Below, piece after piece: positions 10,490-46,578 of a DNA stretch of 64,000 nt. The DNA comes from Verrucomicrobiales bacterium (GTDB taxonomy: Bacteria; Verrucomicrobiota; Verrucomicrobiia; Verrucomicrobiales; V1-33): assembly GCA_965229245.1 (NCBI GenBank), contig CBDDIW010000005.1:334618-398617 (forward strand). The letters run 5' to 3'. The first letter of the stretch is position 1, and each line of letters begins with the position of its first letter. Both the position numbers and the translations under genes were made by a program. The notes under the pieces are model-generated. The model saw nothing but the letters and a program-made list of their open reading frames with translations. It was not told the origin of the DNA and did not search any database.

Positions 10490-10510
10490 CCGCTTTCCCA
10501 TCCCCCCGCA

Positions 10511-11893: not shown

Positions 11894-11899
11894 TCCTCC

Positions 11900-12607: not shown

Positions 12608-12675
12608 CTCCTGGAGACTCCGCTCCTCTCTTTAGATTTTTTCCATCCTCACGGCACCTCTGAATTCCCTCGTAT

Positions 12676-16416: not shown

Positions 16417-16428
16417 TCCCTGACTTCC

Positions 16429-17430: not shown

Positions 17431-17440
17431 CCAACACGCT

Positions 17441-18463
17441 ATGGACCTCCAGTCACTGAAATCCCCTGTCAGCCCGTCCGCGCCCTGCGGGGTGGACCTC
17501 GAAAACAACTACGACCCGCGCTGGGCGCAGTTGAACACGCTCGCCGCCGGCGAGAAACGGGAGGGCATCACCTATCCGCCCAAGTGGCAGGATGTGCGGG
17601 ATCTCGCCCTGGAGCTGGCCGCGGAGACGCGGCATCTGCGCCTGGGGGTCATCCTCACGGAATGCGCCACGTTCCTCCAGGGGGTCGCGGGTCTGCGGGA
17701 CGGCCTCAGCCTGCTCCGCTACTGGTGCGAAAACTTCTGGGACGATGTCTATCCCGCCGGGGAACTGGAGGATAAACGGGACTTCCGCCCGCCGGTGATC
17801 GAGGCGCTGAATTACCCCTCATTCCTCGTGAAACTGCTGGCCGTGCCGGTCTCGCAGTCCGCGGGTGGGCGGTTCAGCATCGGGGAACTGGAGGCTTCGG
17901 AAAATCCCTCCGGCGATGCGGATGACGCCAATACCGCGAAACTGGTGCAGGGCGGATTCAAGAACACGCCCCTGGACATCGTCACGGCGGCACACACGGC
18001 GCTCACGGAGTCCCTGGATAACGCCCGGGCCATTGAGGATGTGTTCGATGAAAAATTCGGCAGCGGCTACGGGGTGAATCTAGCGGACCTTCGGGACCAG
18101 CTCAGCCGCATGGCCCGGAAGATCGCTCCTTATTGTGCCACCGAGGCCGAAGCCGCGGGCGGCGAGACCGGGTGGGGCGATTCCTCCGCAGATGGTGGTG
18201 GTTACGCCACGGCTGCAGGTGGCGGTGGGGGCATCGCGGTGGGAGCCATCAATTCCCGGGACGCCGCGGTGAAAGCGCTGGATAAGATCATCTCCTGGTT
18301 CGAGCTCAATGAACCCTCGAATCCCGTTCCCTTCCTGCTCCGCCGCGCCCAGCGCTGCGCCGGCATGAACTTCTTCGAGCTCATCAATGAACTCGCCAAC
18401 GACCGCGCGCAGGCGGAACTGATCCTGAAACCGGATCCACCCGCGGAGCCGGTCTATCAATAA
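17441..18463 (+). CDS. tssA: Type VI secretion protein TssA (ImpA N-terminal domain family)
   Basis: ImpA_N-like SPVSPSAPCGVDLENNYDP...WQDVRDLALELAAETRHLRLGVILTECATFLQGVAGLRDGLSLLRYWCENFWDDVYP. TssA-type C-terminus NPVPFLLRRAQRCAGMNFFELINEL. Start set at ATG 17441 (MDLQSL), 10 bp after tagF. Confidence 0.8.
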   Translation: MDLQSLKSPVSPSAPCGVDLENNYDPRWAQLNTLAAGEKREGITYPPKWQDVRDLALELAAETRHLRLGVILTECATFLQGVAGLRDGLSLLRYWCENFWDDVYPAGELEDKRDFRPPVIEALNYPSFLVKLLAVPVSQSAGGRFSIGELEASENPSGDADDANTAKLVQGGFKNTPLDIVTAAHTALTESLDNARAIEDVFDEKFGSGYGVNLADLRDQLSRMARKIAPYCATEAEAAGGETGWGDSSADGGGYATAAGGGGGIAVGAINSRDAAVKALDKIISWFELNEPSNPVPFLLRRAQRCAGMNFFELINELANDRAQAELILKPDPPAEPVYQ

Positions 18464-18528
18464 AGGGCCACGAAACAGCCCGGCGGACGCTTTCATTTTA
18501 TATTCATAAAAATTGCGTTAGTAACCAT

Positions 18529-18591
18529 CCCGCCCCTGACCTGGTCATAGGAAGGCCTCCTATACACCGGACAGCGGGCGGGTATTTTATT
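18529..18591 (+). terminator. Composite stem-loop plus T-rich tail downstream of tssA (possible operon terminator)
   Basis: Outer stem CCCGCCC(CTG)...(CAG)CGGGCGGG encloses an inner hairpin ATAGGA-AGGCC-TCCTAT and is followed by TATTTTATT. It begins 66 nt after the tssA stop. Confidence 0.4.
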
Positions 18592-18668
18592 GCCTTCCCC
18601 CGGGTAATTTCTCATATTGCGGCCTGTAGAGAACAGGACCCCGTTTCGCCTGTTCATACAAAAACCCC

Positions 18669-21600
18669 ATGAAGACACGCCTCTCTTTCTTACCATCAGG
18701 GCTATCATCCAAAGGAATGTGTACGTTGCTCGCCGCCGGCGCCGGGTTTGCGCGGGCCCAGGTGGCCGGCACCGTCGATCCCTCGTTCTCCGGAGGCACC
18801 ACGTTCAATAGCGATCCGCAATCCGTTGTGGTCCAAGATAACGGGAAAATTGTAATTGGCGGGGCGTTCGAAACCATCGACGGTCAGGCCCGCAACCGGA
18901 TGGCCAGGCTGCTGCCGAATGGCGTGCTTGAAGATCTCTCTACTTTCAATCCCGGCAACTCATTCGCTACCTATTCCGTGCAATGCCTTGCCGGTTTGCC
19001 CGACGGAAAAGTCCTGGCGGGTGGGTATTTTATGCTGTCCCGGCTTTTGCCTGACGGCAGCGTGGACCCGTCATTCAATTCCGGGGCCACTATCGCTTAT
19101 GATGGCAGCAGCACACTCTATTGCATCGCGGTCCAGGCGGACGGAAAGATCCTCATTGGTGGTGAATTCACCACCGTGGACCATCAGTCCAGAAACGGGA
19201 TCGCCCGCCTCCTGCCGGATGGCTCGGTGGAGAGCACGGCTACTTTTAATGCAGGTACCGGTGCCGATGGTGGAAGTATCCACAGTATGGCGCTCCAGGA
19301 GGATGGGAAAATTATCATCGTCGGGGAATTCACCTCCATCAACGGACAGCCCCGGCGTAACATCGCCCGCCTGAATCCTGACGGAACCCTGGAGAGCACC
19401 GCCACCTTTCAGGCATTACCGGGCTTTTCAGGACCTGTCAGTATTGTGGCGCTTCAGGCGGACGGCAAAATTCTCGCGGGAGGGTACGGTTTTTCCGCGG
19501 TTCATGGTCAGTCGCGGCATGGAATAGTGAGGCTGAATGCCGACGGGAGCCTGGAGGATACCTTCAATCCAGGAAACATCGACGCACCTATGAGCATCGT
19601 AGTTCAGACCGATGGAAAGATCCTCGCCGGTGGATATTCCTTTGTCAGGCTGCTGCCAGGCGGACTACCGGAACCGGTTGCCAGCTTCAATCCGGCTGCC
19701 GGCAGCGGGACGCGAATTAACGGAATTGCCTTGAGGCCGGACGGGAAAATTGTTCTCGCCGGGTCCAACATGATCTTTAATGGTCAGCCGAAAAGATGGC
19801 TGGCTCAACTGACCAATGACCCCGCCGCCCAGTCTCTGGCCGTGAGCGGGACATCCACGGTCACCTGGAACCGGAGCGGCTCGGCCCCGGAGGTGGGACA
19901 GGTAACGTTCGCGCTTTCCACGGATACAGGCGTCACGTGGACACCGCTCGGAAGAGGATCCCGGATCCCGGGAGGCTGGCAACTGAACGGCCCCACTCTT
20001 CCTCACACGGGGCTGCTACGTGCCCAGGGCCGTGTGTCCGGTGGTAACCGGAACGAGAGTTCGGGAGTCACGGAACTGGTAGCCCCTTTTACTCTTACTG
20101 AAAATACTGCTCCGGAAATCAGCCTCGAGCAGCCCGCGTTTTCAGTGCTTTCCACGGGAGGAAACCGGGATTTCGGGATGGTCCAGACGGGTGATACGGC
20201 GGAGCTTTCTTTTGTGATCAGAAATACAGGCACGGCTCCCCTCACGGGGATCGGCCTTTCCTTGAGCGGCCCGGACGCGAGTCAGTTCACTCTTGTCTCC
20301 ACCCCGCCGGTATCCGTGCAAACCGGCACGGAGGCCCTGTTAAAAGTGAGGTTTTCGCCCGTTTCCAGCGGTCTGAAAAACGCGATACTGCGTCTGGGGA
20401 GCAACGACGCGGACGAAGAAACCATCGATATCACCCTCACCGGCTCGGGATCATTGCTGCCGATAGCGGAAATCACCGTTAGAGAACCTAATGGCCCGTC
20501 TATCGTCAGTGGGGAAACCCGTGATTTGGGAACCCTCCCGGTCGGCACCCCGGGGGGGATGCAGGTGAATATCACCAATGAAGGAGTTGGCAATCTCACC
20601 GGTCTTCAGGCGACCATTGACGGACCGGACTCGGATATGTTCTCGCTGACCACCGCTCCCGAAAGTCCCTTGGGCCCAGGAGGCGGCACCCGCCTTCATG
20701 TGAGATTTCTTCCCTCCCGCGGAGGGGCGATCTCGGCTACTTTGCATATCGCCAGCAATGACCGTGACGAAAATCCGTTCGATATCAAACTGACAGGATA
20801 TGGCACGGGCATTGATCCGTCGTTCATCCTTCCCGTGCTGGATGGCGACATTGGCAGTGTAGTCGTCCTGCCTTCTGGAAAACTCCTTGTTGGAGGCGGC
20901 TTTACCACCGCCGGTGGAGCCTCACACCGCTACATCGCGCGGCTTGAGAAGGATGGGGCTCTTGATCCCTCCTTTACCTATGGCGCGGCGGGAAGAGTAG
21001 AATTCCTGTCCGTTTTACCGGACGGAAGAATTGTTATTGGAACAGAGGCCGGCATTGAAAGAATCCTTGAAAACGGCACTCCTGACCCCTCATTCACCTC
21101 CCCCTCCCAGGAAACAGGTTATGGCGGGGGGATTCAGTCGGACGGTCGAATGCTTTATTGGAAGAGTGGCGGCACGCCCAACAGTTACATCGTCGGCCGT
21201 CTCAATAGCGACGGGTCACCGGACACAGGCTTCACCACCGGCATCACCACAAGTTCGCCCCTTCTGACCATGGGGGCGAATGATCAATTCGCGGTGCCCG
21301 GCAGTCTGTTGTCGTTAATGTTTTCCAACTATACTGGCTTCCTGAATAACTATTCCCGGGATGGAGGTCTGGCCGAGGGTGGCCAGTATTTTTATACAGG
21401 AAGACCAAATCAACCCACCTGGGTCAACTTCGTCGCGCCGCTGGACGGCGGCGGCTATGCCATTGGCGGCCAACTGGGACCCAATTATTATTTCACAGCG
21501 GCCCCGACCAATGGAGCGGTTAGCAGCGCCCTGGGGCAGGCGGATGGAAAGTTACTCATTGCCGGTTCTTTCACCCAGGTGGGGAATACCGTGGTGGCGG

Positions 21601-22769
21601 GCATCGCGAGAACGGACTCCAGCGGTTCCGTCGATCCAGGTTTTATCGGTGCCAACGCCAAAACGTTTCTGACCATGCAGGAGGACGGCAAAGTGCTCGT
21701 CTTTACACAAGGAGGTTCCTTTCAAAGGCTTCTCAACACTCCCGCCACTCAGAGCCTTTCCGCCACCAGCTCCTCAAGAGTGCAATGGCTGCGTGGCGGC
21801 TCGTCCCCGGCGGCTTTGGGCGTCACTTTTGATGTTTCCACGGATGGCGGGTCCAACTGGACGAAACTGGGCAACGGGACTTTTATGCCGGCAGCCCGCG
21901 GCTGGGAGTTGAACGGGCTCAATCTTCCAGCGTCCGGGATCCTCCGGGCCCGGGCCCGGATCGCCGGTGTCTATAACAAACTCGGAGTGGTGGAATCGCG
22001 CGCCGCCTTTGGGATCAATGCCTCCCCTGAGATCGTGATCGAACAGACTCCTGGCACCGCTTTGGTTTCAGGAAGCGGCGTTCCTTTCCAGTTCGGCCCG
22101 GTGGCTGCCGGAAACAGCGCCAGCCTGACGTTTACGATCCGCAATACGGGATTCGGTGATTTGACCGGGTTGGCTCTGAGCCGCGTGACTCCCGCCGGAA
22201 TGCCGGGCGATTTCACGATCACCGGCCCGGCGGTGACCAGTCTGGCCCACGATGCCTCGGCCACTTTCACGGTCGCGTTCACCCCGGTAGCCGCGGGCAA
22301 CCATTCCCTGATCCTGACCCTGGCCAGCAATGACGCGGATGAAAGTGCTTTCGTTCTCAGCTTTGAAGGCAGTCTGGCAACGCAAAGCGAGCTCTGGAGA
22401 AAACAGAACTTCGACACGTTCTCCAACACCGGCACGGCCGCGGACCTCGCGGATCCGGATGGGGACGGCATTCCCAACCTCCTTGAATTCGCCACCGGCT
22501 CGAACCCCCTGGCAAAGAACCCGGCGACAGGAACGCTTGTGAAAAACGGTGGAGTGCTGGAATTCACCTGGTCCCGGCTCAAGGCGACCACCGCGGAGCT
22601 GACCTGCCGGGTGGAATGGAGCGAAACTCCGGATGGCATCTGGAGAGTGGCGGGAGTTTCGGAGCCTGTCGTCGTCTCGGATGACGGAGTCACCCAGGTG
22701 ATGAAGTCCGAAGTCCCGCCGGGCACCACCGGACGGCGTTTCGTCAGACTGAAGGTCCTGCGGAACTGA
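18669..22769 (+). CDS. Giant secreted protein: delta-60 (beta-propeller) repeats + choice-of-anchor-D/ASH-like Ig domains, internally duplicated, with a DPDGDG...FxRLKV C-terminal module
   Basis: Signal-peptide-like N-terminus (MKTRLSFL...GAGFARAQ). Repeated DGKIL(I/A)GG.F....G..R..IARL..DGS.. units. DFG.V..G......F.I.N.G...L domains occur four times. C-terminus is ADPDGDGIPNLLEFATGSNP...RRFVRLKVLRN. Confidence 0.85.
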   Translation: MKTRLSFLPSGLSSKGMCTLLAAGAGFARAQVAGTVDPSFSGGTTFNSDPQSVVVQDNGKIVIGGAFETIDGQARNRMARLLPNGVLEDLSTFNPGNSFATYSVQCLAGLPDGKVLAGGYFMLSRLLPDGSVDPSFNSGATIAYDGSSTLYCIAVQADGKILIGGEFTTVDHQSRNGIARLLPDGSVESTATFNAGTGADGGSIHSMALQEDGKIIIVGEFTSINGQPRRNIARLNPDGTLESTATFQALPGFSGPVSIVALQADGKILAGGYGFSAVHGQSRHGIVRLNADGSLEDTFNPGNIDAPMSIVVQTDGKILAGGYSFVRLLPGGLPEPVASFNPAAGSGTRINGIALRPDGKIVLAGSNMIFNGQPKRWLAQLTNDPAAQSLAVSGTSTVTWNRSGSAPEVGQVTFALSTDTGVTWTPLGRGSRIPGGWQLNGPTLPHTGLLRAQGRVSGGNRNESSGVTELVAPFTLTENTAPEISLEQPAFSVLSTGGNRDFGMVQTGDTAELSFVIRNTGTAPLTGIGLSLSGPDASQFTLVSTPPVSVQTGTEALLKVRFSPVSSGLKNAILRLGSNDADEETIDITLTGSGSLLPIAEITVREPNGPSIVSGETRDLGTLPVGTPGGMQVNITNEGVGNLTGLQATIDGPDSDMFSLTTAPESPLGPGGGTRLHVRFLPSRGGAISATLHIASNDRDENPFDIKLTGYGTGIDPSFILPVLDGDIGSVVVLPSGKLLVGGGFTTAGGASHRYIARLEKDGALDPSFTYGAAGRVEFLSVLPDGRIVIGTEAGIERILENGTPDPSFTSPSQETGYGGGIQSDGRMLYWKSGGTPNSYIVGRLNSDGSPDTGFTTGITTSSPLLTMGANDQFAVPGSLLSLMFSNYTGFLNNYSRDGGLAEGGQYFYTGRPNQPTWVNFVAPLDGGGYAIGGQLGPNYYFTAAPTNGAVSSALGQADGKLLIAGSFTQVGNTVVAGIARTDSSGSVDPGFIGANAKTFLTMQEDGKVLVFTQGGSFQRLLNTPATQSLSATSSSRVQWLRGGSSPAALGVTFDVSTDGGSNWTKLGNGTFMPAARGWELNGLNLPASGILRARARIAGVYNKLGVVESRAAFGINASPEIVIEQTPGTALVSGSGVPFQFGPVAAGNSASLTFTIRNTGFGDLTGLALSRVTPAGMPGDFTITGPAVTSLAHDASATFTVAFTPVAAGNHSLILTLASNDADESAFVLSFEGSLATQSELWRKQNFDTFSNTGTAADLADPDGDGIPNLLEFATGSNPLAKNPATGTLVKNGGVLEFTWSRLKATTAELTCRVEWSETPDGIWRVAGVSEPVVVSDDGVTQVMKSEVPPGTTGRRFVRLKVLRN

Positions 22770-30948: not shown

Positions 30949-33900
30949 TCAGTGGTTGAAGAGAAACGCCGGATTATTGATGAGCGCCCAGGTGAGGTCC
31001 TGGGCGGCGGTGAGGCGCTTTTTCTGAAGCTGTCCGGCGCTGAGTCCCACGTCCCGGCGCAGAGCGGCCAGGGAGGGGTCCACGGGGAGAGGCTGCATGG
31101 CTTTGGCCAGCTTCATCTTCAGGGCTTCGGTGCCGGCATCCGGGGGGAGAGGCTTCGAAGCTTCGGCAAGGGCGGCGGTCTTCACGATCATCCCGGCATC
31201 CGTGGCTTTCAGGTGGGCCACGAGAATCCCGGTCTGCTCCGGCGTCCGCTTTTCCGGAGGCACGGCCAGGGTTTCCACCACCGGCGAGGGCAGGCCGAAG
31301 TCCACGGGCGCGGGGGATCCGGTGAGGGCCAGGCGGAAGCGGCCCAGGAGGTGCTTTCCATCGGTAAACTGCTGGCGGAGAACGATCTTCACCGTCCCCC
31401 CGGTAGCTCCCAGGGTGACAGGGTCCTTGCAGCGGAGCACGGCGGTCTGCGGTTTGCCCACTCCATCTGGAACGATAGCCCAGCCGTCCGGCTCGCCGCC
31501 CACCTTGCCATTGATGGCATTTTTGATCTCGTAGCTTCCCTGGTTGTAGGTGGCCACGGCGTCATTGAAGACAATCATTTGCGGCTGGCCGCCATCCGGC
31601 GTCCAGGTGGCCTCGATCTCACTCACCACAAAATTCCCGCCGCCACTGCGACCGGGGCCGTTCATGGGAATGCGGGCATCCGTCAGCGCCTCAAGACGCA
31701 GTCCGGTGATGACCGGCAGCGTGGTCCGGGCGGTCACCGTGTAGTCCTGTTTCCCCTCCGCGCCGAGCGCCAGAATGGAAAGGTCCGGCTGCTTCTCCAG
31801 CTTGTTCGCCTTTTTGGAACTCACGGCCTCAGCGGCATCCAGCACCACCCAGGCGGTCTGGTTCTTCCCCAGCGAGGCCTCCCACGCGGGCAATCCGGCG
31901 GACACGGCATTCCCGGCGTCCGTCAGGGCCTTTTGGGCGGCGTCTATTTTCTCCTGACGCTGCTTCATGGCCGCAGCCAGCTTTGGCGCGAGAGCCGCCT
32001 CATACGCGGCTTGCTCCGCCTTCACGGCATCGATGCCCGCCTGCCGCTCCTTTTCCCTCTGTTCCAGGACGGGCTTCATTTTCTCCTCCAAGGCCACGAG
32101 ATCCGCGGCCATGCCGTGATGCTCGCCCTCCATCTCCGCGAGGGCGGCGGCGGCGGTGCGGCTTTCCCCCTCCGAGGGCGGACGGTTGAGGACGCGCATG
32201 AAGATCTCCCGCACCAGTTGGGTATCGTCCTTCACGGCGTCCACCATTTTGGCGAGAGCATTCCCCTCGGCGGAAACCGCGTCCCCCACGGTGGGGCCGG
32301 AAATGAGAGCCATGATGGGGCCCAGCTGAAGATCGCCGTGGCGTTCACACTCACAGGAACTCTCCCGGGCGGGCTTGCCGAGGTTGTTCAAAAACCCGTC
32401 CGGCGTGGCGGACTGGCTATCCGCCAGTTGCGCGGCGCGCACGTTCCCCGGCAGGATGGATTTCGCCCCAGTGACGGCGAAAATAGCATCATAGAGCACC
32501 TCCGCCGGAAGCCGCCGGGCGATGGCGTGGCTGTAGTTGATGGTGTCGTCCTCGTTCCAGCGGTTCGTCTGGAGGGAAAGCTGATAGGTGCGGCTGCGGC
32601 AGATCGCACGAATGAGATGCCGGGTATCGAACCCGTGCGCGATGAAGTCCTGCGTGAGCCACTTCAACAGCTCCGGATTGCTCGGTGGATTCCCCGCGCG
32701 GATGTCATCCAGCGGCTCGATGATCCCCGTGCCGGTGAGATAGCCCCACACGCGGTTCACATAACTGGAGGCGAAATACTGATTGTCCGCGCTGGTGATC
32801 CACGCCGCCAGTTCATCGCGGCGGGAGGCGTTTTCCGCTTTGTCGTGCTTCGCGGGGTATGGGAATGCCGGGGGCGTCACCTTGCCCGTGCGGTCGTGCT
32901 TCACCTCACCCGCCGGGCTGTTGAGCACCATTTCATAGAAGGGCTTCGCGCCCTCCACATCCGTCCCGCCGATGCGGCGGTCCCCGCTGGCGGGATCAGC
33001 CTCCAGCTTCACGCGGGCGAACCAGGCGGCCATTTCATAATACTGATCCTGCGTCCACCGCTCGAAGGGGTGGTCGTGGCACTTGTTGCAGTTGAACCGG
33101 GTGGCAAGAAACAGATGGGTGGTGTTTTCCATCGTCTCCGCGGGATCGCGCAGGATCTTGAAATAACCGGCGGGTGGCACCTCGCGGTTCGAGCCCGTGG
33201 CTGTGAGGATGCTCCGGGCAAAGCGGTCGTAGGGCACATTCTCCTTCACCTGGGAGCGCACCCAGTCGCGCAGGCCCTTCGCCCCTTCCCCGCCCAGGAA
33301 CTTGCTGTTCACCTGGAGGAGATCGCACCATTTGTTCGTCCAGTGGTCCACGAATTCCTCCGAGGCCATGAGGCGGTCGATGAGTTCCTCCCGCTTCCAG
33401 CGGGAATCCCGGGGATCGTTTACAAACGGCTGGATGACCTCCGGCGCGGGCGGCAGGCCGGTGAGGTCGAGATAGACGCGGCGGATGAACTCCAGGTCCG
33501 TGCAGAGGCCGGAGGAGAGCGTCTTCATGCGCTGGAGTTTCGCGGCCACCAGTTCATCGATGGGGCTGTTCGCCGGAGGCTGTTCCCACGCAAAGCCCGA
33601 GCGGTCCCCCATGACGGTGAGCACCGTGGAGGCGTAGGTGCCCTCGTAGCGGGCCAGCACCGGAGCCTCCCCGCGCCGGGCGGCGGAGAGCAGGCCCGTG
33701 CGGTCATGCTTCGCGATGTCCATGTTCCCGCTCTCGATGAACGACTCCTGCGTCACGTCCCGCTGAAGGCCGTCCGCGTAGGTGGCGAGAAGGCGGAACT
33801 GCTGCCGTCCGCCGATCTTCTGCACCACGGGATTCGCGGGCGTGAGTTCGATCTTCGTCACCCGGGGCGTCTCCAGGTTCAGCTTCATGCCCGCCGCGAT

Positions 33901-34578
33901 CCACGCGCGGACGATGCGGTAATACTTGTCCCCCTGCTTCATCACCTGCCCGCCTTCGTGCGGCACCCCCGCCGTGCCCTTCAGGAGCATGAGGGATTCA
34001 TCCGCGCTGGCCACGTTCGTGCGGCGGCCCTTCACATCATCCGTGAAGGCGCGGATGTCATAGATGGGATCGTAACCCCGCAGGCTGAGCTTGAACCCCG
34101 CCTTCCCCTCCTTCGCCCCGTGGCAGGTGCCCGCGTTACAGCCCATGCGGGAAATGACCGGCGTCACGTCGCGGATGTAATCCGGCGCGAGTTCTGCCCC
34201 GCTGCCACTCACCGTCACCGGAGCCTCCGCGGAGAGGCCGCCCAACGTCACCTTCAGCCTCCCCCTTCCGTCCCCTTTGGCCGTCAAAATCCCCGAAGGT
34301 GAAACCTCCGCGCCCTCCGCCGTCCACGTCACCGCCCGCGTGGCGTCCGCCACCGTGCCGTCCTTCATGGTGGCCGTCACCAGCACCTGGACATAAGCCG
34401 AGGGGCCGGTGAGCTTCAGCTCCGCCGGTTCCACCTTCAGCCCCGCCACCTCCCCCGCCAGCGGCAGCACCTCCGGCAGGACGTCTCCGCCGGGAGCCAT
34501 GCTTTCAGCCCTGGAGAGGGCCACTGAAAACACCGGGACGGCGGCCAGGGAAAGTAGAAGGGTTTTCATAAGGGACAT
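30949..34578 (-). CDS. DUF1549/DUF1553 (PSCyt2/PSD1) domain protein with an N-terminal Big_2 Ig domain and a long coiled coil
   Basis: Signal peptide. MGCNAGTCHGAKEGKAGFKLSLRGYDP, DUF1549-like FIRRVYLDLTGLPP, DUF1553-like ATRFNCNKCHDHPFERWTQDQYY. Confidence 0.85.
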   Translation of the reverse strand: MSLMKTLLLSLAAVPVFSVALSRAESMAPGGDVLPEVLPLAGEVAGLKVEPAELKLTGPSAYVQVLVTATMKDGTVADATRAVTWTAEGAEVSPSGILTAKGDGRGRLKVTLGGLSAEAPVTVSGSGAELAPDYIRDVTPVISRMGCNAGTCHGAKEGKAGFKLSLRGYDPIYDIRAFTDDVKGRRTNVASADESLMLLKGTAGVPHEGGQVMKQGDKYYRIVRAWIAAGMKLNLETPRVTKIELTPANPVVQKIGGRQQFRLLATYADGLQRDVTQESFIESGNMDIAKHDRTGLLSAARRGEAPVLARYEGTYASTVLTVMGDRSGFAWEQPPANSPIDELVAAKLQRMKTLSSGLCTDLEFIRRVYLDLTGLPPAPEVIQPFVNDPRDSRWKREELIDRLMASEEFVDHWTNKWCDLLQVNSKFLGGEGAKGLRDWVRSQVKENVPYDRFARSILTATGSNREVPPAGYFKILRDPAETMENTTHLFLATRFNCNKCHDHPFERWTQDQYYEMAAWFARVKLEADPASGDRRIGGTDVEGAKPFYEMVLNSPAGEVKHDRTGKVTPPAFPYPAKHDKAENASRRDELAAWITSADNQYFASSYVNRVWGYLTGTGIIEPLDDIRAGNPPSNPELLKWLTQDFIAHGFDTRHLIRAICRSRTYQLSLQTNRWNEDDTINYSHAIARRLPAEVLYDAIFAVTGAKSILPGNVRAAQLADSQSATPDGFLNNLGKPARESSCECERHGDLQLGPIMALISGPTVGDAVSAEGNALAKMVDAVKDDTQLVREIFMRVLNRPPSEGESRTAAAALAEMEGEHHGMAADLVALEEKMKPVLEQREKERQAGIDAVKAEQAAYEAALAPKLAAAMKQRQEKIDAAQKALTDAGNAVSAGLPAWEASLGKNQTAWVVLDAAEAVSSKKANKLEKQPDLSILALGAEGKQDYTVTARTTLPVITGLRLEALTDARIPMNGPGRSGGGNFVVSEIEATWTPDGGQPQMIVFNDAVATYNQGSYEIKNAINGKVGGEPDGWAIVPDGVGKPQTAVLRCKDPVTLGATGGTVKIVLRQQFTDGKHLLGRFRLALTGSPAPVDFGLPSPVVETLAVPPEKRTPEQTGILVAHLKATDAGMIVKTAALAEASKPLPPDAGTEALKMKLAKAMQPLPVDPSLAALRRDVGLSAGQLQKKRLTAAQDLTWALINNPAFLFNH

Positions 34579-36500: not shown

Positions 36501-36745
36501 GAGGGCGGGATGGTGTTTGAGATGGGGGCAGCCGTGGCGGAGGCTTTCAACCTCCGTCCGCCAGGCTTTCCCGCCACACGGGACGCAACCGGAGCCTGGA
36601 TACCCGTGGATGGTTTATTATTGATTCAGGTAATGTGTATCCTGGATTCCCTGACGGCTTTTCCGGCGGAGGGTGGTGTTTGCGGAGGGGAGTGCCGGGG
36701 CTGGCGGGGGCGTGGCGGACGGAGGTTGGAAACCTCCGCCACAGG

Positions 36746-37612
36746 TCAGGGCGTGGCTTTGCGAGTGACTTTGAGGCGGAGGAATTTCTCCCTGGCGTCC
36801 CCGGCGGGGACTTCGACGCGCATGGGGACGCTGGTGCCGTTTCCGGCACCCGTGGCGACCGCCGCCGGGCCGGGGGACCAGAGGAGAAGGTTTTCACTCA
36901 CCTCCGGCGTGAGGGTGATGCCCGGGGCCGCGATGGCCTGCCGGAAGTCCATGGTCAGCACCATCTGGAGCGAGCCATTGACCACGCGGGTCACCACACC
37001 GGCCACCGGTCTTTCCCCGGCTCCCGGCAGACGGGGATTCCCCCCCGTGCCGTATTCCAGGAGGTTCGGGATGCCATCGCCGTCAGGGTCGGCATCGTCA
37101 CCCGTGATGAGCCCGGCGGCCAGTTCCGCCGGGGTGAAGTATTGGGTTTTCCACGCCGAGACCGGGCCGTATTCCACGCCGGGAGCGCTCACCCGGGTCC
37201 CGTCCGCGAGGGCGAGGATGACATTGGAAACCGCAAACCCCGGGCCGCCCGCGGGCGCGCCGGACGCGATGAGCGCCGCCGCGTCCAGGACCACGCCCTT
37301 TGTCAGCGGCTGGTTTCCGGGATTGGAAACCACCACCCGTGTTTTGCCCGGGGCGATCTCCCGCGCCGCCGTGAGCGGCACCGGAGTGGCCCCCGCCGGA
37401 GCCGCCGCGGTGACCGTCAACTGCCCGGCGGTGTAGCTGATGTCGAACTGCAATCCCGTGACCGGGGACGCGCCTTTCAGCGCCACCGGCCAGCGGGCGG
37501 CGGCTCCCGGCGCGGCCTGGAGATCCTGGAGCACCAGAGTGTCCTGAGCGGCGGCATTCAGGGTGAGGACCGCCGCGAGGCAGCCCCAGCGTTTCAGAGA
37601 AGGCATCTTCAT
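36746..37612 (-). CDS. Secreted cohesin-like domain protein with a DPDGDG...FLRLKV C-terminal module
   Basis: Signal peptide MKMPSLKRWGCLAAVLTLNAAAQ. Cohesin-like beta-sandwich cues (WPVALKGASPVTGLQFDISYTAGQLTV...VVVSNPGN). The cohesin call is by eye only. The C-terminus has AWKTQYF...DADPDGDGIPNLLEYGTGGNP...KFLRLKVTR. Confidence 0.6.
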   Translation of the reverse strand: MKMPSLKRWGCLAAVLTLNAAAQDTLVLQDLQAAPGAAARWPVALKGASPVTGLQFDISYTAGQLTVTAAAPAGATPVPLTAAREIAPGKTRVVVSNPGNQPLTKGVVLDAAALIASGAPAGGPGFAVSNVILALADGTRVSAPGVEYGPVSAWKTQYFTPAELAAGLITGDDADPDGDGIPNLLEYGTGGNPRLPGAGERPVAGVVTRVVNGSLQMVLTMDFRQAIAAPGITLTPEVSENLLLWSPGPAAVATGAGNGTSVPMRVEVPAGDAREKFLRLKVTRKATP

Positions 37613-39773: not shown

Positions 39774-42700
39774 TCATGGTTGATTTCGGAAAGAGGCGGG
39801 AGGCGAGGCGATCAGCAGGTCCGTGCCCGCCGCCCCGTTGCCGGGGGCGGAGTTCAGATAGCTGGCTTGAGGAGAGAAGAGGAGCAGGGTGGTGTCCGGC
39901 ACGCCCGCGCCAGGCACCGCATTCAGGAAGGCGGCGGGGCGGGAGATGACCACCAGTTCCGTGTCCGGAGTGCCCAGGCCGGGCACGCTGTTCAGGAAGC
40001 TGGTGGACCGGGAACTCACCGTGAGACTGGTATCCGGAGCGCCCACGCCGGGCACGGCATTGAGGAAGCTGGCGGTGGTGGAGACGGGTCTCCACGGGGG
40101 CTGGGAATCCGGGCTCAGCGGATTCGAGCCCTCCGCGATTTCCCCGGCGTCGTCCCAGCCGTCCCCGTCGGTGTCCGGGTTCTTCGGATCGGTGCCGCGG
40201 GTGATTTCCTGACCGTCCGGCAGGCCGTCCAGATCGGTGTCCTCCAGGCCGTCATCAATGCCGTTGCCGTTGGTATCACGCAGGCGGGGATCGGTGCCGA
40301 GGAGGAATTCCCCCGCGTTGCTGAGGCCGTCGCGGTCGAAGTCCTCCTGGCCGTCGGGGATGCCGTTGCCGTTGGAGTCCGCCTTGTTGGGATCCAGCCC
40401 CAGCAGCGCCTCCCAGTCGTCCGGCACGCCATCGCCATCCGTGTCCTTGTAGGAGAAGACGCGGAAGGTGGAAGTGGCGGGAGCACTCATGACATTCCCC
40501 GCGACATCGGCGGCGGGAGCCCCGGCGCGGATGCGGTAAAGCCCAGGCGTGAGCGCCCCGGAGGGCGTGAGATACGCCGTGCGGTTTTCCTTGCTGAAGC
40601 TCACGGAGGCTCCTACGGCCTGGTCATCCGCGTTGCCGAAGATGCCGTCCGCCCCCGCTCCGGTGAGGGTCAGGCCGCTCTGCAAAGTGCCCGCGTTCAT
40701 GGCCTCCGAGAAGGTGACGGCGGCGCTGGCAAGGGCTCCGGTGAGCGCGTTGTTCTCCGGGAAGAACGAGATCACCTGCGGCGGCGTGCCATCCGGCACC
40801 AGGGTGAGGGTATAGAGCGGGGTCCACGTGGCATTGCCCCCGGTATCCGTGGCGCGGGCACGCACGGTGAAGGTGGCCTTGCCCGGGGCGCGGGCGGGCG
40901 TGATGAACCGGTGCTCGAAGGGGAAATTCCCGTCCGTGAGCACGAGGACATCGTCCACGTAGAACTCCACGTTCCGCACCTGCACGTCATCCGTCACGGA
41001 GGCGGTGAGCCGCATGAGCGCGCCCTCCTCCGCCGTGCCGCCGGCGAGATTGAAGTTGGAGGAGAGCGCGATGACCGGCGGGACGCCCGCGGTATCGTAG
41101 GCGCGGTAGTTCACCACCTGGAGCCCGCTGTCGCCATCCGCCACGTAGGCGAGGCCGTTGTAAACAGAAACCGCCTCCGCCAGGCCAGGCGTGACGTGCG
41201 TGGTCTGAAAGGTATTCGCCAGGCCATTGGTCCCGATACTATATAGATCGATATCGTGCGGCCCGTCGCTGGTGGAATTCGGCGAAGCCGCGGCCACGGC
41301 GAGGCCGGAGCCCGCGGGCACGAGTTGCTTGAATCCGAACTGCCCCGTGGTGAACTCTGCGGCGCGCGCGGGCTGGAGAGGGTTCGTAAGATCCAGGACA
41401 TTCCAGCCGGTGGTGTGCGCGGCGTAGAGCTGGCCCTGGCCCGGGGAGAGCCGCAGACGGCGCTGCCCGGCTCCAACGCCCGCTCCTGTGACCGTCACAA
41501 AGCCACCCGCCACCGGCACCTGCAGCGCCAGGGAAATGGCGTCCACGCGGCCCGGGCGGTAGGCATAGAGCACCTCGCCCGCCACGGCCACGTCCTGCAC
41601 GCTGCCGCTGCCCAGGCTTACTTTCCAGAGGATGCGGCCCGTGAGGAGATCCACCCCGGAGACGAACCCGGAGGACGTGCCCACGCAGGCCACCGGGCCA
41701 TAGGTGGTGACGCAGGTGGCCGGAGCCCCCAGGTCCGCGGAGCGCACGATCTTCGCGTTCCGCGCATCCGAGACATCCACCACCACGAGGCCGCCGGTAT
41801 AGTCCGCCACGGCCACCAGATTCCCATAGCCCGCCACCGCCAGCGCGGAGCCGGGCGTGTCCACCTCCGCGAGGCGCAGGGGATTCAGCCCGCTGAGGAC
41901 GTTGAAGATGCTGATGCCCCGCGCGCCGTTCGCGGTCACGGCGGTGTCATTCACCGCGAAGATGTCCACCGCGTGCCCCGTGGCGGGCGCGGAGGCGATG
42001 ACGCCCGTGCGCACGGCCAAGCCGTCCAGGGGATTGGTGCCCTGCTGGATCTCGGCACCGTCCTTGATGCCGTCGCCATCCGTGTCGGCCTTCGCGGGAT
42101 CCGTCCCGATGACGCGCTCCGCCGTATTGAAGAGACCGTCCTGGTCGGCATCCCCGTCCGCCTGCATGGGCGCTCCGGGCGGGATCAGGGTCTGCACGCC
42201 GTTCGCGGCGGAGACGAAATAAGCGCGGGTGAAGTGGTTCTCGGACTTCACATACCGCTCCACCAGATAGACCCGGCCACCCGCGAGCACCGTGCCGGGA
42301 ATCCGGCCATCGCGCGTCAGGCTGCCACGAATGACGCCACCGGAGACGGTGTCCTCGATGCGGAACCAGCCTTCCACATTCACCTGACGGTTCACCTCGC
42401 CCACGGCGGCGGCGTAGTATTTGTTCAACGCCTCCAGGCGCGCGGCCAGGTAGTCCGCTTCGTCGAGGCCGCCGGTCACGAGATCGATGCCGGCCTCCAG
42501 ATCCAGGAGGCGGTTCAATTGATCCTGGGTCAGAGCTTCGGCGGACTCCGCGTTGCCCACGATTTGCGCGGCCTGCTGATAGATCTGCTCCAGGAGTTCG
42601 ACATCCGCCACGAGGCGGTTCAGTTCCGCATACCACTGCGCGATGGTGCCGGAGGGAATATCGCGGGCCACGCGGGGGGCGGCGATGGCTTTCCCCGCCT

Positions 42701-44555
42701 GCAGGGGGCAGGGCGGCAGCGGCGGGATTTCGCCGGGCGTGAGATTGCAGTCCAGATAATACTGCTGGCAGGCTTTGGACAGCTCGGCGGCGGTGATGGG
42801 ATCGGTGACGTCCGCTTTTTTGGCCACCTTGCAGAAGACCTTGAAGATGCGGGGAGCGCCCGGGACTTTACACACCACGTAGCGGATGATGACCCCGCCT
42901 CCCACACCGGCGGCTCCACTGGCGAAGCACGCGGCACGGCGCTGATTGTTCATCACCGGGCTGGGATCACAGGGTCCGAAGGGAGGATTGAAATTCCCGT
43001 CCTCACAGCCGGGAGGCGGCGGAGGCGGAGGAGGTCCGGAGCCGGAGGTGCCCGGCTGCGAGCCGTGCCAGCCGGGCTGGCGCACGCCCACGCCCGCGTC
43101 CGTCTTCACATAGTTTCCGTCGTCCGTGACAGTCATGGGTCCCACGACTTCCCAGGAGCCGGTATCGTGATTGAACGACCACAGCGCGGACTTCGCGCCT
43201 GGCGGCAGCTTCTGACCCGTGGCGGGGTCCGGCAGGTTCGGCATCGTCACGGGGACGGGCCGATCGAAGTTGGAGGCCCCGTCCGACTGGATGGTGATGA
43301 CCATGGGGAGATTCAGCCCGGGAGGCAGCGGGGAGGGCAGGCGCGAGGGTGGCACGGGTGCTAGGCCCACCTTGCCGCCGCGGGTGCCGTCATCGGCGAA
43401 AAGCGAATTCGCGGGCACGTTGACCTCCGTGCCGGCCAGGGAAGGATACTCGGCGAGCACGGAGGCGGGAAAGGCCACCTTTGTATCCTGCGTCTGGCTC
43501 ACGCTCTGGAGCGTGCCCGCGATGATCCGGGGAAGATAAATGGTGCCGCGCACGGGGTCCTCCGTGTTGCCCGCCAGATTGTCCGTGCGCCCGGCCACGG
43601 CCTCCCAGCGCTTTCCCACGGTGGGGTAGTAATCGCCGCCCGGCCACGCGCTGGCGGGCGAGGTGCGGCCATCCACGTGCACAAAGAAGGAGCCGGTGGG
43701 ACAGGGGCTGAGGACGAAATTCCCCGACGCATCCGTCACCGTGCGCAGCGTCTGCTCCGCGCCGTCCACCGTCACGGTGACCCCGGCCAGCGGGGTATCC
43801 AGCGGCTGCCCGCCGGGAGCGACCGCGGGCTTCGAGGCCATGACCCGCCCCCGGATGGCGGTGGCCGCCACGGGGGTGATGCTGATGGTATCAAACGAAA
43901 ACCGGTAGTTCCCCGCCGGGGTATCCGCGGAGGGAGACACGAGGCTGACCGGACGGCCCAGGATGTCCGTGAGCCCGGTGCCGTCCAGGGTGACCTGCAC
44001 GCGGGCACTGGAAGGCAGCGGCTCCAGGTAGAAGAGCGTGGCTTTCCTGCGGTCCGAGGACAGGTCCACCCGGGAGAGCACCTTCTTTCCGCCGAAGTCG
44101 GCATGGAATTTTGTGGTGTCGAGAGTGGCGGTGAGGGCCAGCGGGACGGTGAAGTGGACCACGGTTTCCCGCGTCACCGCCACCTCCCCTTCCCCGTGCG
44201 CCGGGGAGGTGAAGCGCACCGTGGTGGCGGGCAGCGCCTCCGGGGTGCGGGACTGCACGACCAGTTGTAACAGCGCTTGCTGGTCATCGCCATTGATCGC
44301 GCCATCCCCGTTGATGTCCGCCAGGAGCGCGGCGGAAGCGGCGAGGGGCTGGGTGCCCTGGATGTGCCCCGCCAGCTTCGCGAGGTCCAGCACCGTGAAC
44401 TCGCCGTCTCCATCCAGATCCCCCGGCAGGGACGCGGCCCGTCCGGAAAGGACGGGGAGCAGGGAGAATAAACCGGTCAGAACGAGAGCCTTTATCCATC
44501 GGAGCCCGCGGGGTAAAAACGGGGACGGACGGCGGCGGGGAGGTTTCACAGGCAT
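39774..44555 (-). CDS. Giant multidomain surface protein (~1590 aa): N-terminal dockerin-like module, SbsA/Big_5 Ig domains, carboxypeptidase-regulatory-like domain, LVIVD repeats, thrombospondin-type-3-like Ca-binding repeats, C-terminal 23-aa tandem repeats
   Basis: Signal/TM LRWIKALVLTGLFSLLPVLSGRA. Dockerin pair DLDGDGEFTVLDLAKLAGHIQG / DINGDGAINGDDQQALLQLV. LVIVD-like GNLVAVADYTGGLVVVDVSD. DTDGDGVPDDWE, DSNGNGIPDGQEDFDRDGLSNAGE, DTNGNGIDDGLEDTDLDGLPDGQE, DTDGDGWDDAGE. Start uncertain (ATG 44555 chosen; the ORF is open to 44642). Confidence 0.85.
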   Translation of the reverse strand: MPVKPPRRRPSPFLPRGLRWIKALVLTGLFSLLPVLSGRAASLPGDLDGDGEFTVLDLAKLAGHIQGTQPLAASAALLADINGDGAINGDDQQALLQLVVQSRTPEALPATTVRFTSPAHGEGEVAVTRETVVHFTVPLALTATLDTTKFHADFGGKKVLSRVDLSSDRRKATLFYLEPLPSSARVQVTLDGTGLTDILGRPVSLVSPSADTPAGNYRFSFDTISITPVAATAIRGRVMASKPAVAPGGQPLDTPLAGVTVTVDGAEQTLRTVTDASGNFVLSPCPTGSFFVHVDGRTSPASAWPGGDYYPTVGKRWEAVAGRTDNLAGNTEDPVRGTIYLPRIIAGTLQSVSQTQDTKVAFPASVLAEYPSLAGTEVNVPANSLFADDGTRGGKVGLAPVPPSRLPSPLPPGLNLPMVITIQSDGASNFDRPVPVTMPNLPDPATGQKLPPGAKSALWSFNHDTGSWEVVGPMTVTDDGNYVKTDAGVGVRQPGWHGSQPGTSGSGPPPPPPPPGCEDGNFNPPFGPCDPSPVMNNQRRAACFASGAAGVGGGVIIRYVVCKVPGAPRIFKVFCKVAKKADVTDPITAAELSKACQQYYLDCNLTPGEIPPLPPCPLQAGKAIAAPRVARDIPSGTIAQWYAELNRLVADVELLEQIYQQAAQIVGNAESAEALTQDQLNRLLDLEAGIDLVTGGLDEADYLAARLEALNKYYAAAVGEVNRQVNVEGWFRIEDTVSGGVIRGSLTRDGRIPGTVLAGGRVYLVERYVKSENHFTRAYFVSAANGVQTLIPPGAPMQADGDADQDGLFNTAERVIGTDPAKADTDGDGIKDGAEIQQGTNPLDGLAVRTGVIASAPATGHAVDIFAVNDTAVTANGARGISIFNVLSGLNPLRLAEVDTPGSALAVAGYGNLVAVADYTGGLVVVDVSDARNAKIVRSADLGAPATCVTTYGPVACVGTSSGFVSGVDLLTGRILWKVSLGSGSVQDVAVAGEVLYAYRPGRVDAISLALQVPVAGGFVTVTGAGVGAGQRRLRLSPGQGQLYAAHTTGWNVLDLTNPLQPARAAEFTTGQFGFKQLVPAGSGLAVAAASPNSTSDGPHDIDLYSIGTNGLANTFQTTHVTPGLAEAVSVYNGLAYVADGDSGLQVVNYRAYDTAGVPPVIALSSNFNLAGGTAEEGALMRLTASVTDDVQVRNVEFYVDDVLVLTDGNFPFEHRFITPARAPGKATFTVRARATDTGGNATWTPLYTLTLVPDGTPPQVISFFPENNALTGALASAAVTFSEAMNAGTLQSGLTLTGAGADGIFGNADDQAVGASVSFSKENRTAYLTPSGALTPGLYRIRAGAPAADVAGNVMSAPATSTFRVFSYKDTDGDGVPDDWEALLGLDPNKADSNGNGIPDGQEDFDRDGLSNAGEFLLGTDPRLRDTNGNGIDDGLEDTDLDGLPDGQEITRGTDPKNPDTDGDGWDDAGEIAEGSNPLSPDSQPPWRPVSTTASFLNAVPGVGAPDTSLTVSSRSTSFLNSVPGLGTPDTELVVISRPAAFLNAVPGAGVPDTTLLLFSPQASYLNSAPGNGAAGTDLLIASPPASFRNQP
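39777..40085 (-). repeat. In-frame 69-bp (23-aa) tandem repeat, ~4.3 copies, at the 3' end of the giant gene
   Basis: Translation: SFLNAVPGVGAPDTSLTVSSR / SFLNSVPGLGTPDTELVVISR / AFLNAVPGAGVPDTTLLLFSP / SYLNSAPGNGAAGTDLLIASP / ASFRNQP. Confidence 0.85.
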
Positions 44556-44726
44556 AGGGGAGACAGGCGCGGTGCGGAAACGAAAGGGGACGGAAACTTG
44601 AGAGGGGGGCCTGCCAGGGGTCAGGCGAATTCCTATCCGCACGCCTTCCCGCGCCCTTGCCAGGATTTTGAATTTTTTGCGAACGAAGCCCGCGCGGCCC
44701 TCCGAACAGGGGGGGTGCTTGGGAGG

Positions 44727-44748
44727 GGGTTATGACGGCATGACGCAC
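44727..44748. repeat. Left arm of a perfect 22-bp inverted repeat
   Basis: GGGTTATGACGGCATGACGCAC is the exact reverse complement of 44990..45011. Confidence 0.95.
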
Positions 44749-44822
44749 AAAAACGAAGTTCTACGGCTCCGCACGGAGTCGTGACGGCACGCCACCTTAA
44801 TCACATCTTCACGCCGTTTCAC

Positions 44823-44850
44823 TTGACTCCCAGTAACTACACTCTAATAT
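44823..44850 (+). promoter_or_regulatory. Sigma70-like promoter candidate inside the cassette, currently facing away from the giant operon
   Basis: TTGACT (44823-44828), a 16-nt spacer, then TAATAT (44845-44850). This is the best hexamer pair I could find on either strand of the AT-rich core. In AT-rich DNA such matches can arise by chance. Confidence 0.3.
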
Positions 44851-44989
44851 GTCTGGATATTATTACTGAATGTTATATTGATATATATCAAATAATATCA
44901 TGTACATTCAACTACTATATATATAGCAGAGAGAGACAGACAGACAAATCCCGGGAGACGGAGAGCCCCCGCCGGGAAAGTCCATTTTA

Positions 44990-45011
44990 GTGCGTCATGC
45001 CGTCATAACCC
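44990..45011. repeat. Right arm of the perfect 22-bp inverted repeat
   Basis: GTGCGTCATGCCGTCATAACCC, preceded by the T-rich TCCATTTTA. Confidence 0.95.
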
Positions 45012-45041
45012 GTCCGGCAATTCCGGCAAAAGTTCATTTCT

Positions 45042-45062
45042 GTGCGTCATGCCGTCATACCC
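45042..45062. repeat. Third copy of the repeat (direct with the right arm), overlapping the tcdA stop codon
   Basis: GTGCGTCATGCCGTCATA-CCC matches 21 of 22 positions (one A missing) and is preceded by the similar T-rich TTCATTTCT. The last codons of tcdA (PGMTA*) are encoded within it. Confidence 0.9.
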
Positions 45063-45841
45063 GGGCTCCCCTCCGCGAGGCGGCGCACCACCTCCCCGGC
45101 GGCGGCGAAACCGAAGACGCCGGTGACGAAGGTGGCCGCGCCAAAGCCGGAGGCGCAGTCCATTTGCAGGCTGGAGCCCGTCTCCGCCTCCGCGCGGCAG
45201 GTGCCGTCCGCCCAGGGGTAAATCTGCGGCTCGGCGGAATACACACAGGACACGCCAAAGGGCCCGTCCTCCCCGGAGGGAAAGCCATGCTCCCGGCGCA
45301 GAAGACGGCGCACCAGCCGCAGGAGATCATCCCCGCCGGACCTCGCGAGATCCCCGCTCCGGATGGCGGTGGCATCCCGGCGCCCCCCGGCACCGCCCAC
45401 CGTCAGCACGGGCACGCCCCGGGACCGGCAGGTGGCGATGATCACCGCCTTGATGGAGGCGCGGTCCACGGCATCGATCACAAAATCACACGGCTCCGCG
45501 AGCAGCGTTCCCGCATTGGCCCGGGTGACAAACTCCGGCACCTCCCGCAGGCCGCACTCCGGATTGATGCGCCGCATGCGCTCCGCGAGCACGCTCACCT
45601 TCGGGAATCCCTCTGTGCCGGAGAGCGCGTGAAGCTGGCGGTTCGTATTCGTCACGCACACATCGTCCATGTCGATCATGGTCACCTGCCCCACGCCGGA
45701 GCGCACGAGGGCCTCCACGGACCACGAGCCCACCCCGCCCACACCGATGACCGTCACGCGGGCGGCCCGCAGGCGCTCCATACCCGCCTGGCCATACAGA
45801 CGGCCCATGCCGCCAAAACGCTGTTCATACCCGTCCATCAT
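45047..45841 (-). CDS. tcdA: tRNA threonylcarbamoyladenosine dehydratase (ThiF/MoeB-family, TcdA/CsdL)
   Basis: RFGGMGRLYGQAGMERLRAARVTVIGVGGVGSWSVEALVRSGVGQVTMIDMDDVCVTNTNRQ. About 260 aa, typical for TcdA. Confidence 0.88.
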   Translation of the reverse strand: MMDGYEQRFGGMGRLYGQAGMERLRAARVTVIGVGGVGSWSVEALVRSGVGQVTMIDMDDVCVTNTNRQLHALSGTEGFPKVSVLAERMRRINPECGLREVPEFVTRANAGTLLAEPCDFVIDAVDRASIKAVIIATCRSRGVPVLTVGGAGGRRDATAIRSGDLARSGGDDLLRLVRRLLRREHGFPSGEDGPFGVSCVYSAEPQIYPWADGTCRAEAETGSSLQMDCASGFGAATFVTGVFGFAAAGEVVRRLAEGSPGMTA

Positions 45842-45960
45842 GCGTCAATGAGGCTCCAGTACCGGAGCAGTGAGTGGTTCGTTCGCTTCAAATGACAGGG
45901 CCACACCGCCCCGCCGGGGTTGCCCCCACCGGGCCGCAGGCCCGTCTCAAGGCACCGCGA

Positions 45961-45986
45961 TAAAACAAGGCCCGGAAAAACGGGCC
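45961..45986 (-). terminator. Rho-independent terminator after khpA (minus strand)
   Basis: On the minus strand: GGCCCG-TTTTTC-CGGGCC followed by TTGTTTTA. It starts 7 nt after the khpA stop. Confidence 0.6.
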
Positions 45987-45992
45987 GGGAGC

Positions 45993-46244
45993 TTACTCCA
46001 GGACTTCCACGCCCACCTCCGCGCCCTGAAAGGCGGCGGCCGCGGCGGCGAGATTCCGGATAGCCATCACCGTATTCCCACTGTGTCCCAGCAGGCGGGC
46101 GATGTCCCCGCCGCCCACGCGCACGTCAAAAACATGGCGGGCTCCCTCCTGGCGGTGCACCACACTGGCTTTCTCCGGCTGATCGGCCAGGGAATGCACC
46201 ACGTAGTTCACAAATTCCTGAATGCCGGTAACAGCGGGGGTCAT
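45993..46244 (-). CDS. khpA: KH-domain RNA-binding protein (UPF0109/YlqC, KhpA family)
   Basis: 83 aa. KH core GDIARLLGHSGNTVMAIRNL. The position directly downstream of rpsP is conserved for this family. Confidence 0.78.
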   Translation of the reverse strand: MTPAVTGIQEFVNYVVHSLADQPEKASVVHRQEGARHVFDVRVGGGDIARLLGHSGNTVMAIRNLAAAAAAFQGAEVGVEVLE

Positions 46245-46320
46245 GACGGAGGAATGGGAATAAAAGCAGAAACCCGGCCCCGGTCATACAGACCGGAACC
46301 GGGTAAAGGTTTCAAAAGCC

Positions 46321-46578
46321 TCAGGCTTTAGGCGGCAGGGCCTTGCGGGCCCGGCGGATGATGCTGGCCACCGTTTCGCTGGCCTTCGCACCCTTGCCGA
46401 TCCACTCGTCCACCTTGGCAATGTCCACCACGGAGTTGTCCGTCTTTTTCATCGGATCGTACGTGCCGATCATTTCGATAAAACGTCCGTCACGGCGGCT
46501 GCGGGAGTCCGCGACGACGATACGGTAAAACGGGCGGTCCTTGGAGCCTTCGCGTCTCAGCCTGATTGCAACTGCCAT
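46321..46578 (-). CDS. rpsP: 30S ribosomal protein S16
   Basis: [42 protein letters not shown]. Start set at internal ATG 46578; the track ORF extends spuriously to 46764. Confidence 0.96.

Follow-up and report, generated by a model that had tools for sequence, protein, structure and literature searches.

The window, that is, the whole stretch of 64 kb that was analysed, has a G+C content of 64%, and between 35226 and 45063 its gene order is tcdA, an inverted-repeat cassette, a gene for a giant protein, a Kelch gene, a 288-aa ORF (ORF288), a second inverted-repeat cassette and a PAP2/VCPO-like gene. The first cassette, the subject of this work, lies downstream of a minus-strand cluster of rpsP (S16), khpA and tcdA that is conserved in relatives, and it is bordered by the following two genes:

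45047 to 45841, minus strand: tcdA (tRNA threonylcarbamoyladenosine dehydratase, ThiF family), the last gene of the conserved rpsP-khpA-tcdA cluster
39774 to 44555, minus strand: gene of a giant secreted protein of ~1593 aa with dockerin, Big_5, Big_7, TSP3 and LVIVD domains, the first of the set giant-Kelch-ORF288

With the ATG at 44555 (MPVKPPRRR...) taken as the start of the giant gene, whose product then has a signal-peptide-like N-terminus, the 172 bp that the original prediction placed between cassette and operon are correct. The giant gene is followed by a gene for a Kelch beta-propeller protein and then by the 288-aa ORF with a weak cohesin match, and the signal-peptide-like N-terminus, together with the domains of the giant, Kelch and ORF288 products, makes the earlier label of a surface or secreted protein operon a reasonable one.

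Other properties of these proteins may be recorded here. In the giant protein a type I dockerin domain is situated close to the N-terminus, and the cohesin match of ORF288 (36746-37612, minus strand) is sub-threshold (E 0.0036); together they are a hint that this member of the Verrucomicrobiales has a cohesin-dockerin pair for surface display. Many Verrucomicrobiota proteins (P0123-P0241) share, at 50-67% identity, the N-terminal region of the giant protein (42156-44555, minus strand; ~490 aa) and differ in their C-termini (RHS repeats, phospholipase A2, DUF900 alpha/beta-hydrolase, peptidase M15), a pattern resembling that of a shared delivery or anchoring module of polymorphic effectors; the C-terminus of the giant protein itself (39774-40000, minus strand) consists of 4-5 tandem repeats of ~24 aa, with the consensus ..SFLNAVPGxGxPDTxL.., which no Pfam family covers. 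At a greater distance, the plus strand of 9497-22769 carries the type VI secretion genes TssK/VasE, DotU/TssL, IcmF/TssM and ImpA/TssA, and after them the gene of a 1366-aa DUF5122 beta-propeller/ASH-Ig protein, where the G+C content is lower (58-59%), and on the minus strand of 30949-34578 a PSCyt2/PSD1 (DUF1549/DUF1553) protein adjoins a DUF7133 protein, the former being typical of Planctomycetes and Verrucomicrobia and consistent with the taxonomic placement. No Phage_integrase, Resolvase, transposase or obvious regulator domain was found in the 56 ORFs that cover the window, in agreement with the original prediction as regards a recombinase; there is no adjacent regulator gene, the neighbouring ORFs yielded no regulator of the HTH type, and the window holds no tRNA gene.

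The repeat units

The repeats of the cassette form three units, which are arranged around a segment of intergenic DNA in this way:

44727 to 44767, plus strand: repeat unit L, with a 22-nt perfect arm at 44727-44748 and the invariant 19-mer at 44731-44749 (nhmmer E 4e-12)
44749 to 44989, no strand: putative invertible segment between L and R1, 241 bp, 42% G+C overall
44971 to 45011, minus strand: repeat unit R1, with a 22-nt perfect arm at 44990-45011, inverted with respect to L (nhmmer E 1e-12)
45023 to 45063, minus strand: repeat unit R2, direct to R1, with the perfect 19-mer at 45041-45059 and a 1-nt deletion at the outer tip

The sequence at 44727-44748, GGGTTATGACGGCATGACGCAC, is the exact reverse complement of 44990-45011, so that 241 nt lie between two 22-nt arms, just as had been proposed, and complementarity of the L and R1 arms continues to 41 nt at 83%. 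No other perfect inverted repeat of the window with its arms within 2 kb of each other is as long, the rest reaching 16 nt at most. The third copy (45042-45062) starts 30 nt past the right arm, is oriented like it and equals it minus one A at the outer tip; the 21 of 22 positions formerly attributed to it are obtained with a 1-nt gap, the ungapped alignment (45042-45063) giving 20/22. As also foreseen, it overlaps the stop codon of tcdA (45047-45049), and R2 codes for the last four codons of that gene (G-M-T-A) as well as for the stop.

A perfect 19-mer, TATGACGGCATGACGCACA, is common to all three copies and lies within a unit of ~41 nt over which the three, when oriented alike, can be aligned, the inner flank RAAAYGRASTTT being partly conserved; in L this flank is A-rich, AAAAACGAAGTT, and conserved in part. 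One hundred dinucleotide shuffles of the window contained no repeat match, against the three observed. A profile built from the three units detected no further copy in the 64-kb window, not even a degenerate one, and the interior is likewise single there; a candidate fourth degenerate unit at ~44781-44800, mirroring R1, was marginal in shuffles (p ~0.04-0.13) and was left out of the count, the three-unit profile having missed it.

The differences between L and R1 are not spread evenly: 7 of the 41 positions differ, and all seven fall in the inner 19 nt, for which the hypergeometric probability C(19,7)/C(41,7) is 0.002. This confinement is what would be expected of a constrained protein-binding core and not of neutral copies, and it suggests that the repeats behave like protein-binding sites, for which they are candidates. 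R1 and R2 are spaced by 52 bp start-to-start, or 4.95 helical turns, and would therefore present themselves on the same face of the DNA. The core is itself a tandem direct repeat of an 8-mer, ATGACGGC ATGACGCA (ATGACGSM boxes), and its internal dyad symmetry is weak (8 of 12 pairs, not significant).

The AT-rich interior

Between L and R1 lies a set of promoter-like and other elements:

44817 to 44936, no strand: AT-rich core, 28% G+C, containing TATATATATA, (AG)4(ACAG)3 and an imperfect palindrome
44823 to 44850, plus strand: sigma-70-like pair TTGACT-16-TAATAT, 9/12, reading away from the giant operon
44882 to 44911, minus strand: sigma-70-like pair TTGAAT-18-TATATA with extended-10 TG, reading toward the giant operon
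44947 to 44920, minus strand: sigma-70-like pair TTGTCT-16-TATATA with extended-10 TG, reading toward the giant operon
44878 to 44891, no strand: FNR/CRP-family-type palindrome TTGAT-N4-ATCAA, TTGATATATATCAA, perfect and the only one of the window
44949 to 44975, minus strand: GC-rich hairpin CCCGGCGGGGGCUCUCCGUCUCCCGGG followed by U-rich AUUUGUCUGUCU, inside the cassette and adjoining R1

The lowest G+C fraction of any 120 nt in the window, 0.28, is found at 44817-44936, the next lowest values being 0.38 and 0.40 and that of the window 0.64; the earlier count by hand of 34 G+C in 44821-44940, overlapping this minimum, was exact, and the segment is the most AT-rich DNA of the window, as had been said. 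With respect to promoters, the plus-strand pair at 44823-44850 is present as predicted, but it is not the best one, since the hexamer pairs on the plus and minus strands of the AT-rich core score equally. The minus-strand pairs are already aimed at the giant operon, and the argument that the best promoter of the cassette points away from it is thus unsupported by consensus scoring. All the intergenic sigma-70-like sites are within the cassette, none being found in the 172-nt leader (64% G+C).

A larger imperfect palindrome of 30 nt (44870-44898) has the FNR/CRP-type palindrome at its centre; 0.04 sites of the FNR/CRP type would be expected in the window and 21 of 20000 local dinucleotide shuffles produced one, figures to be read bearing in mind that the match was recognised after the fact and in AT-rich DNA. 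The FNR/CRP-type site would be situated ~41-43 bp upstream of a hypothetical plus-strand start served by a -10 element TACTAT/TATATA (44913-44921), and this spacing, which fits the plus-strand -10 better than any minus-strand one, would give modest support to an outward-facing promoter. The arrangement recalls the class II FNR/CRP-dependent promoters in the perfect TTGAT-N4-ATCAA, in the -10-like hexamer and in a spacing suited to a site near -41.5, and departs from them in that the window contains no gene of the FNR/CRP family and no other such site.

The hairpin at 44949-44975 (minus strand) is a weak candidate for the terminator of the rpsP-khpA-tcdA operon: terminator-like sites show no enrichment over shuffles. 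A hairpin with T-rich flanks is present at both ends of the cassette. For the 69-aa ORF within the cassette, 1.84 billion representatives yielded no credible homolog and Pfam no match, and a search of 43500-46500 against Rfam returned sub-threshold chance matches only, none of them in the cassette.

Distribution and synteny

The species is known from a single genome; a TcdA identical to that of the window (P0001) is recorded on one contig of 2.32 Mb, the next relatives in rank being 74-78% identical. The exact 21-mer of the repeat had no match in 185,579 species (one genome each) or in 241 million metagenome records, the 19-mer had none in viral contigs, and plasmid and phage collections returned chance-level matches to the cassette only; a looser 17-mer gave more than 120 single matches in metagenomes, a rate as by chance, with flanks mostly unrelated, and the core sequence led in the literature to unrelated papers only. 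Neither the opposite orientation nor an empty site nor a further member of the family was met with in these collections. Among the metagenome contigs, one of 56% G+C (L057; 108-150 and 7790-7870) and another (L058) carry an 80-nt intergenic repeat with a ATTCCCGC-N4-GCGGGAAT (dRS3-like) hairpin, within which both have the 17-mer ATGACGGCATGACGCAC, in L057 in one of the copies. These were discarded as members of the family: the 80-nt repeat is unrelated, and 4 of the 17 positions of the supposed core are different in the second copy of L057.

The rpsP-khpA-tcdA cluster is conserved in three relatives (L001-L003), where the DNA downstream of tcdA is unrelated and unalignable, with neither the cassette nor any inverted repeat. 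In L001 tcdA is followed by a canonical terminator; homology of the candidate tcdA terminator of the window with it was rejected, the sequences being unalignable. The TcdA of the window is 3-7 residues longer than those of the relatives.

On the other side, the best ortholog of the giant gene (L007; 67% identity over 1581 aa) belongs to a locus with the order PAP2/VCPO, giant, Kelch, in which the PAP2/VCPO gene precedes the giant gene with a 60-nt gap and without an inverted repeat, and the DNA upstream of the giant-gene orthologs in L008 and L009 has no inverted repeat either. In the window, the second inverted-repeat cassette (36534-36566 and 36710-36742) has the stop of the 288-aa ORF (36746) on one side and the start of the PAP2/VCPO-like gene (36500) on the other; its arms of 33 nt are 91% complementary, lie 143 nt apart around an AT-rich centre and are each able to form a hairpin of their own, and a promoter consensus was not detected within this second cassette. 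A kinship of the two cassettes was considered and abandoned, their sequences being unrelated. Judged from these gene orders, both cassettes sit exactly at synteny breakpoints and are lineage-specific.

Proposed inversion and its alternatives

The single most likely reading of the cassette, proposed tentatively, with less than even odds, and placed ahead of a MITE-like insertion and then of an operator array, is that of an inverton. The repeats, their orientation, the 19-bp core, the promoter-like interior and the position are observed, and from them we infer the action of a recombinase, inversion and an ON orientation, in the following terms: (i) the three units would be the binding and crossover sites of a site-specific recombinase whose gene lies in another part of the genome; (ii) recombination of L with R1 would flip 241 bp, and that of L with R2 about 293 bp; (iii) the DNA flipped would be the AT-rich promoter region between the end of rpsP-khpA-tcdA and the giant dockerin-bearing operon. 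As this promoter region would be inside flippable DNA in front of the giant operon, flipping would switch the expression states of the operon, that is, it would produce phase variation. The putative plus-strand promoter with the FNR-type spacing, which now faces away, would by a flip be aimed at the giant operon.

Several properties agree with this reading. The geometry is that of an inverton, with a perfect 22-nt inverted repeat around 241 nt of intergenic DNA, an arrangement found 0 times by chance, and the genes downstream code for secreted or surface proteins. The size is also suitable, more than 75% of 10,983 PhaseFinder invertons being shorter than 300 nt (PMC11602134), and the Verrucomicrobiota have been reported as inverton-rich, with a verified example in Akkermansia (PMC13343947). 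The cassette shares with the invertons of gut Bacteroidales and Akkermansia (e.g., cps1) and with fimS of E. coli the short inverted repeats, the ~150-350 bp, a promoter, here a putative one, and the place directly upstream of surface-structure genes. Moreover, the recombinase of an inverton may be unlinked, as with Mpi.

Against the inverton, the equal hexamer scores on the two strands leave no evident ON/OFF asymmetry, which argues against a simple ON/OFF promoter switch, and no tyrosine or serine recombinase domain is encoded by the 56 ORFs across the 64 kb. The dyad symmetry of the core is weak, the orthologous operons of three relatives have no upstream inverted repeat, R2 overlaps the stop codon of a housekeeping gene (tcdA), and the core, at 28% G+C in a genome of 64%, looks foreign. 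Compared with the known invertons, the cassette has three sites and not two, promoter-like elements on both strands, an interior extremely AT-rich for a 64% G+C genome, no recombinase within 64 kb, and an inversion that is putative; nor is its repeat related to the Akkermansia inverted-repeat motif CGGATT..AATCCG (PMC13343947), which is absent from the 41-nt units. The likeness is one of layout, and the cassette is an unverified candidate.

The explanation that ranks next, and which we regard as only slightly less probable, is that the ~337 bp of 44727-45063 are a foreign non-autonomous mobile element of the MITE type, or its remnant, and do not invert. The terminal and subterminal repeats would then be transposase-binding sites of an element inserted at the very 3′ end of tcdA, from which the giant operon would now have its promoter region. 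The terminal inverted repeats with an extra subterminal copy in a short non-coding element speak for it, as do the foreign composition of the interior (28% vs 64% G+C), the lack of a recombinase nearby, the lineage-specific occurrence (absent after tcdA in L001-L003 and before the giant orthologs in L007-L009) and the location at a synteny breakpoint, with the unrelated second cassette at the other one; furthermore, the longer TcdA, with its extra G-M-T-A-stop from R2, is what an insertion at the 3′ end would produce. Bacterial MITEs such as the Correia elements and the Tn3-derived TIMEs resemble the cassette in their 150-350 bp, terminal inverted repeats and intergenic position, can overlap gene ends and can carry promoters or terminators.

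However, no direct target-site duplication is present at the L/R1 or L/R2 boundaries, the flanks being ...GCTTGGGAGG on the left and, on the right, GTCCGGCAAT after R1 and GGCTCCCCTC after R2, without a direct repeat; this is expected of a resident switch and not of a transposed element. In contrast to the Correia and TIME elements, which it also departs from in this duplication, the cassette is single-copy in the window and absent from the collections searched: within the 64 kb, which make up about 3% of the genome, there is no further copy of the unit and no second one of the interior, and the plasmid, phage, viral, genome and metagenome collections gave no match beyond chance. The window has no transposase either. 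A resemblance to the ends of gamma-delta/Tn3 is no better than that of the best random places in the window, and ends of the Tn3 family (38-bp GGGG...TAAG) were accordingly rejected, L scoring 12-14, unrelated sites of the window 12-13 and R1/R2 7-8; the gamma-delta terminal repeat used for this scoring was verified in plasmid F.

Less probable again, and rather unlikely, is an operator array, in which the three units would bind a trans-acting protein (a repressor or activator recognizing the ATGACGSM 8-mers) with no rearrangement of the DNA, the bound protein looping or coating the terminator-promoter region, with an FNR/CRP-type factor that might co-act at the central palindrome. An invariant 19-bp core with variable flanks does imply a protein-binding constraint, and a core made of a tandem 8-bp direct repeat and not of a dyad is atypical of recombinase core sites; R1 and R2, 52 bp apart, are on the same helical face, the sites flank all the promoter-like elements, and a perfect TTGAT-N4-ATCAA occupies the centre. 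Ordinary promoters with flanking inverted repeats that do not invert are, besides, common (PMC11602134). On the other hand, it would be unusual for the three operators of a single promoter to agree perfectly over 19-22 bp, no regulator gene is adjacent and none of the HTH type was found among the neighbouring ORFs, the sites are not conserved in relatives, and the upstream gene has its stop codon within one of them.

The inverton reading may be extended to a more elaborate form, for which the R64 shufflon offers a comparison. The sfx sites on which Rci acts there are more than two and in both orientations, and each is asymmetric, ~19 bp of it being conserved and the arm less so. The cassette is like them in having more than two sites, a conserved 19-bp part and a variable arm, a likeness which may serve as a lead only: in R64 coding segments are rearranged and rci is adjacent, whereas the cassette is non-coding and has no recombinase nearby, and the sequences are dissimilar. 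On this model, which we consider quite improbable as a whole, a three-site shufflon-like switch in a non-gut member of the Verrucomicrobiales, with an unlinked recombinase and a new asymmetric 19-bp core of tandem ATGACGSM would flip the terminator of the tcdA operon together with an FNR-type-controlled promoter, and in so doing it would couple the giant dockerin/cohesin operon to, or uncouple it from, housekeeping read-through and a CRP/FNR-family regulator.

It is very improbable that the repeats act at the RNA level, with read-through from rpsP-khpA-tcdA forming an R2/R1/L duplex that would insulate or process the transcript (an RNase III-type target), for although the minus strand of 44700-45070 folds at -153.5 kcal/mol against -108.9 for shuffles (z = -7.8), with R2 pairing with L, any inverted repeat gives a strong fold trivially, there is no Rfam match, the candidate terminator lies between R1 and L, and the L/R1 differences are mismatches and not compensated pairs, which is not what selection for a pure stem would yield. 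A replication origin with iterons was rejected, there being no DnaA box (up to one mismatch) in or near the cassette and no rep or dnaA in the window.

If the cassette proved to be a MITE or an operator array, it would be an ordinary lineage-specific regulatory insertion, of interest mainly as a marker of local rearrangement. If, as the inverton reading proposes, the segment is invertible, the cassette would be a switch for phase variation in a lineage of the Verrucomicrobiales that is high in G+C and has been little studied, with three sites, a recombination sequence unrelated to the Akkermansia motif and control over a giant dockerin-bearing surface protein; it would thus extend what is known of surface variation in the Verrucomicrobiota and provide a handle for finding the recombinase.
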